This document shows positions 6,001-14,889 of a stretch of DNA of 14,889 bases, piece after piece. The position numbers were made by a program. Position 1 is the first letter of the stretch; every line of letters starts with the position of its first letter. The stretch spans positions 1 through 14,889 of the forward strand of contig JAYKGY010000023.1 of the NCBI GenBank assembly GCA_035285545.1, written 5' to 3'. This DNA comes from Snowella sp. GTDB lineage: Bacteria; Cyanobacteriota; Cyanobacteriia; Cyanobacteriales; Microcystaceae.

Positions 6001-9000
6001 ACAGTTTTTACCCCAAGTTTGGTTTTGCATCTTAGGACTCTTTCTCTTTCTCTATGTCCTCTTAGATGGCTTTGATCTCGGTGTGGGAATTCTTTCCCTG
6101 ACCGCATCCAGTGAACAACGCCGCAGCATTTTAATGACCAGTTTGGGAAATGTCTGGGATGCAAACGAAACCTGGCTGGTTTTGATGGGCGGCTCCTTAT
6201 TCGGTGCCTTTCCCCTTGCCTATGCCACCATTTTAAATGCCCTTTATTTGCCCGCCGTTATTATGGTTGTGGGATTAATTTTAAGAGCCGTTTCCTTTGA
6301 ATTTCGGGAAAATGCTAATCGTAAGTTAATTTGGAACGTTGCTTTCGGGGTCGGCAGTTTTCTCGCCGCTTTAGGTCAAGGATTTGCATTGGGCAGTGTT
6401 TTTGAAGGAATTACCGTTGATGCTCAAGGACACTTTGCAGGGGGCATTTGGGATTGGTTAACCTGGCGGTCTGTTATTGTTGCTTTAACTTTAATTCAAG
6501 GTTATGTCCTCATCGGCTCAACCTATTTAATTTTAAAAACCACAGGGGAATTACAAGAAACCCACTATAAGACGGCAACACTCGCTGCTTGGACAACTTT
6601 GGTCGGCGCAATCTTTATTACCATTACTACGCCAATTATGTCGGAAGAAGCCCGCACTCAATTGTTTACGGCTCCTTTAATTTATGTTTTTGGACTCATC
6701 CCAGTTTTAGGATTACTGTTAAGTGGACTACTGATTAAAAGCTTAAATCGTCGAGAAGAAAATACGCCACTGATTTGGACATTTTCGTTATTTACCCTGT
6801 CTTTTGTTGGATTAGGTTTCGTTATTTTTCCCAATATTATTCCACCCAGCATTACTATTTATGAAGCCGCTGCTGCACCAAGCTCTCTAGTTTTTATGCT
6901 AACTTTTATTGGCTTTTTGATTCCTGTTTTGTTATTTTATAATATTTATAATTATTTAGTTTTTCGAGGAAAAATTACTGACTAATATTCTAATTTAATT
7001 TATCCTAAAAAGTTCTTTGATAAATAAAAATTCCATTATTTTTAAAGAACTTTTTGATTTTTTAACAATGCCAAAAATAGAAATTCGATAGAAGTTAGAT
7101 CAAAAGTTGAAAAAATATAACTGTAAAGCCAATCATTAGCAATAGGTGAGGCAAGTTACTCAACAGCGATCGCTGGGTAATGCGTAACAAAGGATAGGGG
7201 CTAAAGACCAACGCTGACAGGAGCGTAACCCCTTGGAGAAATTGAGCAACATCTAGACTCCAGGTTAAACTGGGTAAGACAATAAGATTAAAGCCGAAAG
7301 AATAAGCGGTAACAGGAAGAATACGGCCCGCTTCAGTGATTGCCGCAGGAATGTAATAGGCTAAATTGGCTGCTAGGGTCAACGGGAGATAGATATAGAT
7401 AACCGTCAGATAATTGGGTTGTTGGGGGTCAAAATAACAGGCGATCACGTGGGTTAAATAGGTTAAAATCGCGGGGATGCTTAACAAAATCAGTGTAATG
7501 GGAATACTAATCAGTAAATGCTCCGAATCTAGGCTAATGGAATCGAATCCGAAAGCTCTGAGTATTTTCTGGGATTGGTGCATAAATACACCACCCAAGA
7601 GCAACAGTAATAACGCAATTTCTGCCCAAAAACCTTGATGATTATCCAATAAATCCGAAGCGGGAAAGCGAAGATTGAGTTGGGCGGAACGATTGGGGCA
7701 AGCTTTGAGGCAGGTCATACAGAACATACAATCCCGATTATCCTGCAACTGATTTGGATGGGAATAGAGAGGGCAACCATCTGTTGCTTGACCTTCATTG
7801 GGGAGGGCATCGGGAAAGCTGATCGGGGTAGCGGCACTGCCTTTATAACAACCAAACGTATTACATTGGCTGCCACAGACCTGTTGAGTAGAGCGCAACT
7901 CGATCATGGAAAGCTTGGCAAACATTCCATTCATGCCCCCAATTGGACAAAGATAACGACACCACAGCCGCCGTTCATAAATTTGGCTAAAAATGACTGC
8001 TCCTGCTGTGATCACCAACAATAGCCAAGCAGATAAATAGGCATGATGAGGTAAATCCCAGAGTTTTTCCCAGAGATAAATAGCGACAAATCCTGCAAAG
8101 AGAAACCACGCTCCCCAACGGTTCAGCGATCGCGTATTCCAGGTAAGTTGCTGACGGGGAAATAGCCACAGAGAAAGCCTCCGCAACCATTCCGCCGTAA
8201 TCATAAAGGGGCAAACCGCACACCAAAGCCGCCCGACAAAGGCAAACCAAAATAAATAACCGGGCCACCACCAGGCCCAAAAAAGATTTAAGGTGACGCT
8301 ATGTTCTCGATCCTGTGGGCCGATAAATCCCAATATAGTGACAGGCACAAAAATCACCATCATGATCAGCCAAAGTCCCTCTGGATACCAACGGCTGAGG
8401 AAAAATTGCCTTAAACCAGGCACATGAGTTAATAAATCTAAACGAAACGCATTTTTGGTTGATTGCACAGACCATAATGCCTGTTCGGGGATAAACTCAT
8501 AGCCCAACGGGGTCATCATGACGGCTCGGTGAAGGATTTCCGCCAATTCCGCAATATTGCCAGGATAGTCATAACTGATTAAACGACGGAGATCGGACTG
8601 ATCCAGTTGTAGAAGGGGACGATTTTGGGCTTGGCAAAACTGAGTGAGAAAATAACGGGCAAAATTGGGAATATCGGCTTTCCGTTGGCTGAGAGTCTGG
8701 AGTTTAATGGTCAGCGCGTTAATATCGGGTAATGATACTTTATTAGGAGAAGTGAGGATTAATCGAACCCAGGCGTAAATGGGTTGAGGCGGTTCCGTTG
8801 CTAAATCCAAAGGGTCAATAATGCCGTGATTGGGCAGAATAAACCCCGTTTTCAAATAATGGGCTAAACGGGCGCGATCGCCGTCTCCGAGAACTTGCAC
8901 ATTAGTTAACAGTAAGGTTCCCCGTTCCAACAGTTCAAAAATACCGACTTGACCATTGACTCGTCCAAACAAAAGATCTGTGTCTAACCGACCATCGCTG

Positions 9001-12000: not shown

Positions 12001-14889
12001 TCTGACAATCGACCCCGAATAAATTGAATGCCGTAGGTTTCCTGCGCTGTGCGATAAAGTTCTTCGTAACCCCGACCGAAAACCCGAATATCCATATAAA
12101 GGCAGTAAATATCGCAATCAGGAATTAATTTTTTGATTTCAATGGCATCTTTAATGGTATTGGTGCAACAGACACGAGAACAGTAATAATTGCCCACTTT
12201 TTGGTCACGGGAGCCGACACAGTGAATCATGGCAATTTTTTTCGGAACCTTGCCCTGTACCGTCGTTAATCGTCCTTCCTTGAGCCGTAAATCCAGTTCA
12301 ACCGCCGTAATACAATTATCGTAAACGCCATAACCGTATTCTTCTTTTAAGGTTGCATCAAAGTGATAAAATCCGGTGGTCATTAGAATAGCTGCTGCTT
12401 CCAAGGTTTCCCCATTGGACAGACTAACTTGAAACTGGGGAGAAGTTCCCGCGATCGCGCTGACGGTTGTTTCGGTTAAAACTCTGGTTCCGTTCAATTC
12501 TCGTTGTAATTGATTGACAATCTCTGCGCCCTCGGTGAAATCGGGAAAGACTTTAAACCAGTTTTTGACATGACCGCCTAAAGCCCTTTCTTTTTCTATC
12601 AGCGTCACCTGAAAACCTAAGTGGGAAAGTTTTGCAGAAGCTGACATTCCCGCAACGCCTCCACCAATAACAACAATCTGTTTATTCATAGCTTGCTCAT
12701 CCGAATAAAAGGTTAATAAGGTTAAGTGTTAGAAAAATTTAAAAAGGCCGACGGCGTTCTTCAAAGGTTTTTGAGCGATCGTAGGGAATTCCAATTTGAT
12801 CTAATAACGGTTCAATCGCGATCGCTTTGGCATTCAAACCACAATCTTTGAAGGGGTCGTAACCGAGCAGCAGACCCGTTAATTGGGCATAATCCAACAC
12901 ACAAACCCCAAAATCTTCTTCTAACACTTCCCGAATCGTTCCTTGTTCTGCATCCAAGAAAACCGTACAGCCTGGACAGTTGGTTAAAATCAATTTACAG
13001 TCGGGATGGGCTTCTTTGAGACTCTTCATTTTTTTATAAACGGAGCCTGCGGTATAGTCTCGATTTTCGGGAAAAGCACATTGACGAAAACCCATACCGC
13101 AACAATGCCGCCGTTCAGGATAATCAACGATCTCAGCCCCAAACGCCTGTAACATTCCCACTAAAATCTGGGGGAACTCTGCGCCGCCCATTGCTTCTTC
13201 AGGGAAAATTTTGGCGTAGTGACAGCCCACATGATCGGTTGCTTTAATGCCTTTCAAACTATATTTGGCTTTAGCCGCTAACTTATGGCGATTGGCAAAA
13301 AAGACATCGGATGCATGAACTACCGAAGGACGACCTTCTAAGACATGGGGAACCCAAAATTCACGCCCTGTTGTTTCTTTTAAGGTTTTGGCAGTATATT
13401 CTCGCAATTCGGGTTCTTCTTCCCAAAGCTTCATCATTTCCGTGTAATTAGCGAAAGACGTTACACAAAAAGAAAATAATTTATCGACTCCCAGTTCGTA
13501 GTGAGCAAGGGAAAAATTGCGGGCAGCCACCACCATTTGGGTTTCAATATTGGTGACATCACCGTGATAACCGATCGCGCCGCAGGAGGTATGGCCTGGG
13601 GCTTCTCGTAAATCGATGCCTAAATCATTTTTGAGAATTTTGTAGGCAATGCCTTCGGTATAAGGAGCCGCACTTTGCAAAAAACAACTGCGAAAACAGC
13701 CCCACACTTTTCCATCGGGATCATCAATACTGGGAACAGCTTTTTGGTGTTTTTCCCATGCTTTTACTTTTCCTTCAACTTTCATGCTTTTTATTTCCTC
13801 AAGGGTATTTATAAAAAATTGATGGTTAATTTTGGCTATAGTTTTTTAAAAAGGCGAAGACTGATCAACGAATTAACGGTTGACCTAAATAGGATTCAAA
13901 ATAAATTTAATTGGGTAAATTTGATTACTCTGGCAGAGAATAATTCCTGCTATCTGCGGTTTCTAACCAATTTTGCCAGTATTTTTCTACTTCTTCCTTG
14001 CTGCCTAATTTCTTTTCCATTCCCTTTTCTACTGCTTCCATTAACGCGATCGCGCCCGTTTTTTCGTAGATGGTTCGTAATTCTTCTAAGTCTTTTTCAG
14101 GAATTTGCCGATGGGAACCCGCACTATTTTCCAAATCCATCGGTACGCCCCACCATTCCCGCATTTCTGCCATGTGTTCGTAATAGTATTCCCAGTTTTC
14201 GCCTAATTCGGGGAAATGGGCAGGAGAAATATTTTGAGCAACTAATGTATAACCCCGTTTAAGCATATTTTCGCCAAAAACGCGCTTAGCAAACAGTTGT
14301 TGTCGGCCTTTTTCCGATTCAGCAAAATAACCATGTTTGACCGACAGACGACGCAGAGCCAGAATCACCGATGCCGCACTATTCCCCCTCGGACAACGGG
14401 TTTTACAAGAAAAACATTGCCCACAATACCAAATTTGCTCGGATTTGAGCAGGGCTTCAATCTGTTCATCATCTTCAGACTGCACGGTATTCATCACTTC
14501 ACGGGGCGAATACTCGTAAAATTCGGCAGCAGGACAAACGGCAGTACAAACCCCACAGTTGAGGCAGGCGTTCATCCCATGTTCATACAAAATGTCTTGC
14601 TTGAGTTCGTTGAATAATTGACCCATTGAATTACCCCCGATTGCTTTATCTATCATATAACCAGATAGTAAAATAGTTATCAATAGGGATAAATACTCAA
14701 TTTTTAGCTTAGGGGAAAATTTAAAAGCTTTGTCAAAGTCGCGATCGCCAACTAACTGTTCGACTAAGAGCCTATCCGAAAAGTCAATAGGAACGAAATT
14801 GGTACATTTTAGCGAACGCTAACTTCACTAGCTAGGTGGACGGTTATTTCCCTAGCAAATGCTCGGATAACTATCTCTCAAATGAGTCC

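Follow-up and report, generated by a model that had tools for sequence, protein, structure and literature searches.

A membrane iron-sulfur protein with a degenerate enhancer-binding-protein head among sulfur genes of Snowella sp.

Bacterial enhancer-binding proteins (bEBPs) such as NtrC1, PspF, ZraR and NifA place a sensor N-terminal to an AAA+ domain and its lid (PF00158 and PF25601), with an HTH domain C-terminal to these. VpsR of Vibrio cholerae, a regulator that is soluble, binds DNA and carries a receiver domain, is an atypical bEBP, and pseudo-ATPase relatives of its kind work without hydrolysis. NapH, MauN and the C-terminal half of NosR are characterized by Fer4_5 repeats, two Cys-x(2-3)-Cys-Pro motifs after transmembrane helices, and a two-cluster ferredoxin pattern C-terminal to those motifs. 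The sHdr-LbpA system of Hyphomicrobium denitrificans has the gene order hdrC1-B1-A-C2-B2 in the part of the published account consulted here (PMC10332631). Elements resembling each of these systems occur in the window, the 14,889-nucleotide stretch of Snowella sp. DNA analysed here, where a gene carrying a sigma-54 transcription activator annotation really encodes a membrane iron-sulfur protein and not an activator. We call this protein, the product of g00769, FUS; a literature search found no published description of its architecture. The features of the window are as follows.

3086..3676, + strand: TehB-like methyltransferase (Pfam)
3725..4249, + strand: rhodanese (Pfam)
4518..6985, + strand: cydA and cydB, cytochrome bd quinol oxidase (PF01654, E 3.5e-155; PF02322, E 2.8e-89)
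7095..9782, - strand: FUS, an 895-aa ORF fusing a sensor barrel, a dead AAA+ module and a membrane polyferredoxin; clade 1
7098..8390, - strand: nine-helix membrane domain of FUS, residues 465-895 (AF2; Fer4_5 twice; CxxCP at 521-525, CxxxCP at 608-613)
7638..7967, - strand: predicted cytoplasmic 2x[4Fe-4S]-type insert, residues 606-715 (C636, C640, C645, C670; C685, C688, C691, C695)
8508..9191, - strand: bEBP-derived AAA+ module and lid, residues 198-425, predicted pseudo-ATPase (PF00158, PF25601)
9324..9590, - strand: CRP/FNR-type beta-barrel, residues 65-153 (PF00027, E 1.9e-16)
9889..10755, - strand: HdrB2-like CCG protein, also SdhE-like, 288 aa (PF02754 twice; PDB HdrB, E 1.5e-48)
10974..11573, - strand: HdrC2-like 2x[4Fe-4S] protein, 199 aa (Fer4_8; TIGR03290, 3.6e-24)
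11613..12689, - strand: short HdrA-like flavoprotein, 358 aa (Pyr_redox_2; PDB 6tjr_A, E 2e-62)
12739..13785, - strand: HdrB1-like CCG protein, 348 aa (NF041780, 4.2e-48)
13925..14626, - strand: HdrC1-like protein (NF041779, 1.4e-28); the open frame runs on to 14683 (TTG), and the ATG at 14626 suits homologs of ~235 aa

The domain order that the survey's finding had given for FUS was recovered at the same Pfam coordinates (cNMP_binding 65-153, Sigma54_activat 198-311, AAA_lid_14 366-425, then two Fer4_5), as were its NCBIfam rows, in which only bEBP models, all sub-threshold, match over residues ~143-445. The paralog with the same order is likewise present (G000:C12:21760-24264; 40% identity to FUS). 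A full-length AF2 model of FUS (pLDDT 90.5, pTM 0.75) includes a long linker helix in the head in addition to the barrel and AAA+ domain. Searching the 895-aa protein revealed no DNA-binding domain, and neither that search nor the head domains of the family included an output domain.

The AAA+ domain is related to bEBPs both in fold (Foldseek matches to NtrC1 1ny6 at TMt 0.82 and to PspF at 0.73-0.80) and in sequence (phmmer E 1e-13 to 7e-17), and VpsR (PDB 7v2b) is the second-best PDB sequence match of FUS (E 1.2e-16). Aligned with ZraR 1ojl, FUS retains Walker A but lacks GAFTGA, the arginine-finger segment FRxDLYYRL and the sensor-II Arg (now Ala), and its Walker B Asp-Glu reads Thr-Asn. 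VpsR likewise lacks GAFTGA, and its Walker B is degenerate too, reading LLLND in the alignment; unlike VpsR, FUS is membrane-integral and has no DNA-binding domain. The motif states claimed earlier held in both paralogs: Walker A is AQPGTGKT in FUS and GEPGLEKD in the paralog, the Walker B position reads GTLLLTNV and GTLILNNL, respectively, and GAFTGA appears in neither. The AAA+ domain of FUS is thus bEBP-derived with its P-loop kept and, judged by these residues, is predicted to be otherwise burnt-out and catalytically dead, as had been proposed. Nucleotide sensing, also suggested for both proteins, is tenable at most for the FUS clade, the P-loop of the paralog being GLEKD.

The barrel gives a different picture from the cAMP sensor that had been envisaged. 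Its top PDB match is DNR 2z69 (E 1e-8), which is not a cAMP receptor, and in alignment with 4byy, 4cyd and 3r6s, a CRP-family regulator that we take to be Corynebacterium glutamicum GlxR, the phosphate-binding cassette FGELS..PRTSSA becomes FGYVS..TYQNQA, with the phosphate-binding Glu and Arg both replaced by Tyr. The domain is therefore a CRP-type ligand barrel with a predicted non-cNMP pocket, and sensing of cAMP is unsupported.

Where bEBPs carry the HTH, FUS has an iron-sulfur membrane domain of nine predicted helices (AF2 of residues 441-895: pLDDT 94.4, pTM 0.92). FUS belongs to the NapH/NosR (Fer4_5, 'polyferredoxin') superfamily and shares its Cys-Pro motifs and two-cluster pattern. 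All 12 Cys of the domain are invariant among 68 diverse family members, and hydropathy and K/R counts (positive-inside) predict that both Cys pairs and the Fe-S insert are cytoplasmic. The proposed likeness to NapH was borne out as a distant resemblance: TIGR02163 (NapH/MauN) matches at E 2e-9 with 35-37 bits against a cut-off of 213, PRK09477 (NapH) at E 4.5e-7 with 31 bits against 234, and NF046105 (NosR) at E 1.4e-5 with 24 bits against 1000, the last over just 54 residues. The alignment reaches positions 71-252 of the 255 in the NapH profile. Since these scores lie far under every curated NapH/MauN/NosR cut-off and a search found no solved structural relative of the domain, the quinone site is putative. 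Unlike NapH, MauN and NosR, FUS has a cytoplasmic head of 440 residues and, towards its C-terminus, five additional helices that match no family, and the annotated ORFs of the window include no napA, napG or nos genes. The membrane module also occurs on its own, in head-less stand-alone Fer4_5 proteins of ~470-510 aa.

The wider family (320 clusters at 50% identity, E <= 1e-30) bears on how the head arose. It had been read as a cyanobacterial relic of the missing sigma-54, and the host genome agrees with the premise: a search of it for Sigma54_DBD (PF04552) gave no match at 95.4% completeness, while the control search was positive in 4 named genomes, and the host has six weaker PF00158 matches in other long frames. 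The reading itself fails, because the dead head is family-wide. None of 104 full-length representatives (rows of at least 700 aa) has GAFTGA or the Walker B Asp-Glu, members include proteins named from Desulfobacterales and Desulfuromonadales MAGs, and the sensor domains of the heads are cNMP, GAF, REC with HisKA, or FHA. The fusion of dead head and membrane module thus appears, from these comparisons, ancestral to a wide bacterial family. Within the phylum, 107 of 401 sampled genomes have a member (E <= 1e-50). Cyanobacteria hold two old paralog clades: clade 2, the commoner, has green-algal relatives, and clade 1, to which FUS belongs, is rare (15/401 genomes), an accessory gene of patchy distribution that occurs in the company of sulfur genes.

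Such heads, with their classic signalling inputs, invite the reading that FUS is a membrane-tethered signalling protein, in which the Fe-S domain would sense redox (the quinone pool, O2 or sulfide) and the dead head would bind or sequester a partner, for instance CysK or another enzyme, or a regulator, with no onward passage of electrons. The precedent of VpsR is consistent with this, as is conservation of the head within clade 1 equal to that of the membrane part. We regard it as rather improbable, given the lack of output and DNA-binding domains, the occurrence of the head-less module, and the 12 invariant Cys with a full 2x[4Fe-4S] pattern, which exceed what a sensor usually retains.

Gene neighbourhood points instead to sulfur metabolism. 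Orthologs of FUS (56-93% identical) were located at 67 cyanobacterial loci, and cysK is their most frequent neighbour. Of the 59 clade-1 loci with at least 1100 bp of downstream sequence, 35 have it immediately after the FUS gene, mostly 2-275 nt away on the same strand; it clears TIGR01139 with 425.7 bits, the cut-off being 351. The other 24 loci lack cysK, and neighbourhoods are heterogeneous. Near FUS orthologs there are also SQR-like genes (9 loci), PetC-type Rieske genes (9), two rhodanese clusters (9 and 7) and a methyltransferase cluster (5). For clade 2, cysK lies within 10 kb at only 1 of 13 loci, and 80 loci of non-cyanobacterial relatives yielded no cysK, Hdr or rhodanese genes and one SQR-like gene.

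The cydAB genes, convergent with FUS in the window and also near it in L033 and L039, raise the idea that FUS reduces a metal or helps to mature a cofactor, in the manner of CcoG (a cupric reductase) or NosR, for a metalloenzyme encoded close by, cytochrome bd for instance. The weak NosR resemblance within the shared Fer4_5 superfamily would fit, as would slr1529, provided that it belongs to the family: the literature consulted describes it as repressed when copper is high and when iron is withheld. With cydAB a neighbour in only 2 of the 67 other loci and the NosR match so short, this explanation seems very doubtful.

Upstream of FUS on the same strand and head-to-tail with it lie the Hdr-like genes, in the order HdrC1-B1-A-C2-B2, with 106 nt between hdrB2 and FUS; ORFs and Pfam bear out this arrangement, and the adjacent cytochrome bd genes, as first claimed. 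The short HdrA is a full-length match to 6tjr_A (residues 3-329 align to 2-335 of 349), presumably H. denitrificans sHdrA. Copies of HdrB1, 81-91% identical, occur in 15 other genomes of the 401 sampled, and SQR is the most frequent neighbour of the set (8/15 loci), which shares with sHdr a linkage to SQR and rhodanese genes. In contrast to sHdr-LbpA, a GcvH-like gene beyond the first, as a candidate LbpA, was found in none of the six Hdr-bearing cyanobacterial genomes examined (6/6 have one strong GCV_H, never near hdr), and the window has no 'hyp' ORF in the 39-nt gap between hdrA and hdrC2, judged against the part of the sHdr account consulted.

It had been proposed that FUS specifically feeds or drains this Hdr-like complex and serves as its membrane anchor, being a quinol-linked electron-transfer protein whose head senses cAMP and nucleotides. 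The Hdr set itself encodes no membrane subunit, the P-loop of clade 1 is intact, and the same gene order recurs in L017 and L027. The Hdr set is present in 16 of the 401 genomes and clade 1 accompanies it in 5, within 10 kb in three of these (G000, G246 and G278); the enrichment, 5/16 against 10/385 other genomes, is only indicative because related genomes are non-independent, and it keeps the coupling idea alive while falling short of demonstrating it. However, clade 1 is missing from 11 of the 16 genomes with the Hdr set, the set lies next to FUS in 3 of 67 ortholog loci, FUS adjoins it in 1 of 15 Hdr loci (with one more at <10 kb), cysK is the commoner partner, and the cNMP pocket is altered. 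HdrB2, as had been noted, scores equally as HdrB (TIGR03288, 1.4e-58) and as SdhE, in NCBIfam a fumarate-reductase membrane-anchor subunit (NF042965, 1.5e-58), both under cut-off, and therefore the Hdr set may need no additional anchor. The co-occurrence of Hdr and FUS is weak but real; the specific feeder or drain is unlikely.

On balance FUS is probably a membrane polyferredoxin, subject to regulation and connected with the redox metabolism of sulfide and sulfur, and not a transcription factor; the sulfur role is one that we infer functionally from gene neighbourhood. FUS would carry electrons between the membrane, where its partner would be the plastoquinone pool or some substrate on that side, and the chemistry of sulfide or sulfane sulfur in the cytoplasm. 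The head would gate this flow, either as a switch that binds a ligand or a nucleotide or as an oligomerisation scaffold. In this Snowella genome FUS may have been recruited to a place downstream of an Hdr-like set that lacks LbpA, within what would be a repeat-bounded, mobile sulfide-handling island.

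The survey's observation on the FUS gene and its surroundings is confirmed by the present analysis. Six open reading frames run in one direction on the minus strand of the window, five Hdr-like genes followed by the gene for FUS, the 895-aa protein that joins a CRP-type barrel, an AAA+ module of the bacterial enhancer-binding protein (bEBP) type and an Fe-S membrane domain. The part of the window to the left of cydAB, which encodes the cytochrome bd quinol oxidase, holds genes for a rhodanese and a TehB-like methyltransferase, besides a psbA copy and a resolvase gene; we saw no nap genes in the window.

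395-1360, minus strand: serine resolvase/invertase with HTH (PF00239, E 2e-47), at the island's left edge, beside a repeat
1846-2928: psbA, passing the psbA equivalog model
4518-6985, plus strand: cydAB, convergent with the FUS gene
7095-9782, minus strand: FUS gene, 895 aa
9889-10755, minus strand: hdrB2-like gene
10974-11573, minus strand: hdrC2-like gene
11613-12689, minus strand: short hdrA-like gene
12739-13785, minus strand: hdrB1-like gene
13925-14626/14683, minus strand: hdrC1-like gene

The Pfam rows reported for FUS were reproduced exactly, and contig C12 carries a paralog that is 40% identical and has its domains in the same order. The NCBIfam models also behave as described: those of the bEBP type stay far below threshold over the central part of FUS, and NapH/MauN reaches 37 bits over the membrane part, where the cut-off is 213. 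FUS is encoded by a genuine, conserved gene that bears the wrong name, and it is a membrane Fe-S protein carrying a non-catalytic head derived from a bEBP. Scans of window positions 6800-14889 gave no excess of promoters (13 sites against 16.9 in shuffled sequence) or terminators (10 against 10.6). The spacer between hdrC2 and hdrB2 (10756-10973) is 218 nt long, where orthologous loci have a 4-nt overlap or a gap of a few nucleotides; in it, TTTAGGGGG comes after the palindrome CCCCCAGAATTGGGGG, and the spacer has the look of a small repeat insertion.

In the AlphaFold2 model of FUS, a confident one built on a 68-sequence alignment (pLDDT 90.5, pTM 0.75), a beta-barrel (about 62-142) leads through a long helix (143-185) into an AAA+ alpha/beta domain with its lid (198-425), and after these come four transmembrane helices and, beyond a cytoplasmic insert at 606-715, five further helices. 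The NtrC-clade AAA+ fold and lid are both recognized above cut-off (PF00158, 41 bits; PF25601, 50.6 bits), and Foldseek places the head close to bEBP structures, including NtrC1 (1ny6_A, TMt 0.82, rmsd 2.9) and PspF (0.73-0.80). Alignment to ZraR (1ojl) reveals an intact Walker A (AQPGTGKT), TN instead of DE at the Walker B position, loss of the arginine-finger segment (FRQDLYYRL in ZraR), alanine for the sensor-II arginine (PGNIAEL for PGNIREL) and a shortened L1 (GAFTGA) loop, and no HTH was found in FUS. VpsR, the second-best PDB sequence match of FUS, likewise lacks GAFTGA and reads LLLND at Walker B. Because the FUS head has lost these catalytic motifs, ATP hydrolysis is unsupported. The proposal that the head senses nucleotides could apply at most to clade 1 (FUS and its orthologs): nucleotide binding is possible in this clade only, since the P-loop of the C12 paralog, a member of clade 2, is GEPGLEKD. 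The barrel fold matches PF00027 (60.3 bits against a cut-off of 27.5), with beta strands at 62-142 in the model, and its closest PDB match is DNR. The further claim that it senses cAMP is unsupported because in FUS Tyr stands in place of both the Glu and the Arg of the phosphate-binding cassette, FGYVS...TYQNQA compared with FGELS...PRTSSA in 4byy, 4cyd and 3r6s, which we take to be structures of the CRP-family regulator GlxR.

The breadth of the family bears directly on how the head came to be inactive. Scanning 1.84 billion representatives at E <= 1e-30 yielded 320 family clusters, many of them full-length at 25-30% identity, and the source names of a few members include Desulfobacterales, Desulfuromonadales and 'Proteobacteria' MAGs. 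Among 30 members sampled, the same core stands behind cNMP, GAF, REC+HisKA or FHA domains, and the membrane module is also found alone in proteins of ~450-510 aa. It had been suggested that the head is a relic that arose in cyanobacteria for want of sigma-54. The premise agrees with what we find: a search confined to the sigma-54 DNA-binding domain PF04552 in the window's own genome (95.4% complete) found none, with a positive control search in four named genomes, and cyanobacteria are generally held to lack sigma-54. The relic reading itself finds no support in the family as a whole, where the Walker B Asp-Glu occurs in 0 of 104 rows of at least 700 aa (the commonest pairs being EN and KN) and the motif G[AS]F[TS]G[AS] matches neither FUS, nor the C12 paralog, nor any of the 104 rows; GAFTGA remnants such as GAFSFA persist in distant members. 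The head is dead across this whole wide family, and therefore degeneration accompanies the fusion itself, not the cyanobacterial absence of sigma-54. The canonical FGE...R[ST]A cassette of the barrel is retained in 18 of 94 family rows and is lost in both cyanobacterial clades. In sum, this is a family in which a bEBP ATPase has clearly been converted to the non-catalytic head of a membrane redox protein. In 80 metagenome loci of non-cyanobacterial relatives no conserved annotated partner was found. The sole recurrent feature there is an ORF of ~130 aa with no Pfam match, which at 10 loci lies directly downstream of the family member (e.g., L104:9582-9977).

Modelled separately, the membrane domain (441-895) is predicted with high confidence (pLDDT 94.4, pTM 0.92). 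No solved structural relative was detected, the best Foldseek match against the PDB having an E of 0.36, and a VIA-align wide search returned generic helical matches (best Z 6.0), which is no proof of a new fold. Twelve cysteines are invariant among 68 diverse family members: the pairs C521/C524 and C608/C612, each followed by proline (P525 and P613), and eight more arranged in two four-Cys ferredoxin patterns. Judged by Lys and Arg counts, the two pairs face the cytoplasm, and so does the Fe-S insert. With NapH/MauN the domain thus shares two CxxCP-type motifs behind transmembrane helices and two cytoplasmic 4Fe-4S motifs. FUS scores below the cut-offs of the NapH/MauN models (35.4 versus 213 bits for TIGR02163, 31.3 versus 234 bits for PRK09477); its membrane domain reaches no named-family cut-off and its last five helices match no family. 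On these sequence features the domain is best described as a distant member of the Fer4_5 / NapH / NosR superfamily.

Two cyanobacterial clades can be distinguished. In a FastTree tree of 51 rows of our choosing, midpoint-rooted for drawing only, clade 1, clade 2 together with green-algal proteins (Trebouxia, Picocystis, Edaphochlamys and Ostreococcus), and the distant bacteria form groups with SH-like support of 99-100 each. The C12 paralog (G000:C12:21760-24264; L002:1480-4056, minus strand) belongs to the clade that groups with these nuclear-encoded algal proteins, and its neighbours have no Pfam match. The grouping of clade 2 with green algae suggests a plastid-inherited function. Across 401 genomes sampled evenly over the phylum, 107 have a family member (E <= 1e-50), and a clade-1 copy, defined by an identity of at least 55%, is present in only 15, one of these copies being a 290-aa fragment. 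The other members are ~38-47% identical to FUS, most of them ~40%, like the C12 paralog. A genome of the same genus, G218, has a 43%-identical match only and no Hdr match; with the scarcity of clade 1 in the sample, this makes clade 1 an accessory gene.

Clade 1 travels with sulfide and sulfur genes. When all ORFs in the flanks of 67 loci of clade 1 and 13 of clade 2, taken from named genomes of cyanobacteria, were clustered, the sole strongly conserved neighbour of FUS was a cysteine synthase (425.7 bits against a cut-off of 351 for the CysK equivalog model). The cysK gene lies directly downstream on the same strand, mostly with gaps of 2-180 nt; of the 59 clade-1 loci whose downstream sequence extends for 1100 bp or more, 35 have it, as does 1 of the 13 clade-2 loci. 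Other recurrent clade-1 neighbours are DUF3122 (12 loci), SQR-like flavoproteins (9), two rhodanese clusters (9 and 7), PetC-type Rieske proteins (9), nitronate monooxygenase (6), ArsP permease, TehB-like methyltransferase and psbA-like genes (5 each) and cydAB (2), and the five-gene Hdr-like set adjoins FUS in 3 of 67 loci (L017, L022 and L027). Docking of the C-terminal Ile of many orthologs into CysK was considered and dropped; the predicted nine-helix topology puts the C-terminus on the non-cytoplasmic side, within a hydrophobic helix. In three loci FUS has a divergent psbA-like gene immediately upstream, on the other strand (L019:8525-9715, L021:7585-8868, L066:8397-9572); the products are 68-70% identical to the D1 of the window and may be 'rogue' D1 variants. 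In a Leptolyngbyaceae MAG (L039:6761-12682), cydA, cydB, the TehB-like methyltransferase gene and FUS follow one another on one strand with gaps of ~10-110 nt, which looks like an operon of genes that are scattered in the window. The only SQR-like match in the window's genome is a fragment at C125:2-655 (minus strand), cut off by the start of that 5966-bp contig, and may adjoin the island in the window.

Homologs of HdrB1 with 81-91% identity occur in 16 of 401 genomes (14 of 155 genera). Gene order is kept in 15 other loci, 14 of which have all five genes, and the commonest neighbour is SQR (8/15), followed by PetC-type Rieske (4) and rhodanese. Among these other loci, FUS is adjacent to the Hdr set in G246 and 10 kb away in G278. 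Clade 1 is present in 5 of 16 Hdr-bearing genomes and in 10 of 385 others, an enrichment that is only indicative because related genomes are not independent. The window matches the hdrC1-B1-A-(hyp)-C2-B2 order of the sHdr-LbpA system, including the short HdrA, although it has no hyp ORF, and its HdrA matches 6tjr_A, presumably Hyphomicrobium sHdrA, over the full length. LbpA is a dedicated lipoate-binding protein, a second GcvH homolog that is usually clustered. In each of six Hdr-bearing genomes, including that of the window, there is a single strong GCV_H hit and it is never near the hdr genes; therefore LbpA, the defining component of the sHdr-LbpA pathway (PMC10332631), is missing. Coupling of FUS to the Hdr-like complex is possible; a complex prediction with FUS 441-895, HdrC2 and HdrB2 scored 0.00, which gives no verdict either way.

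Two different multicopy repeats, which may be IS elements, make up the contig ends (1-125 and 14765-14889), and near-identical copies of them terminate dozens of other contigs in the assembly. An apparent 32-nt terminal inverted repeat near both ends was rejected, the shared core being ~20 nt on alignment. Taken together, the end repeats, the resolvase, the patchy distribution and the high Hdr identity suggest a mobile island of 14.6 kb with repeats as its boundaries.

We infer that FUS would link the membrane to sulfur chemistry in the cytoplasm by electron transfer, with the head in control. A more inclusive reading, which we regard as improbable, is that clade 1 would be the missing membrane module of LbpA-independent, Hdr-like persulfide oxidation in sulfide-exposed cyanobacteria. 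SQR would make sulfane sulfur, which the Hdr-like set would oxidise without O2, and through the polyferredoxin the electrons would enter the plastoquinone pool, to be used in anoxygenic photosynthesis driven by PSI or in sulfide-insensitive cytochrome bd respiration; the dead AAA+/CRP head would act as a gate and cysK as a sulfide sink, and the common clade 2, which green algae retain, would act as a related, regulated redox valve in thylakoids.

An important consequence concerns annotation. Genes called 'sigma-54-interacting transcriptional regulator' or 'nitrogen assimilation regulatory protein' number in the hundreds in cyanobacteria, and slr1529, a putative ortholog of FUS according to the survey, is handled as a transcription regulator or ntrX, without functional evidence, in the accessible portions of knockout and expression studies. 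If slr1529 belongs to the FUS family, where its place would presumably be in clade 2, the transcription-factor premise of those studies is wrong. Our literature searches found no functional study of slr1529 and no relevant paper on the combination of sigma-54, cNMP, NapH, polyferredoxin and cysK in cyanobacteria, and FUS-type genes go unmentioned in what was available of publications on cyanobacterial sqr clusters. The family is 60-80% conserved across cyanobacterial orders, which, with the green-algal relatives of one clade, suggests an unstudied component of the photosynthetic membrane. The neighbourhood of cysK, SQR and Hdr-like genes offers a concrete and testable way into the question of how sulfide is dealt with by some cyanobacteria.
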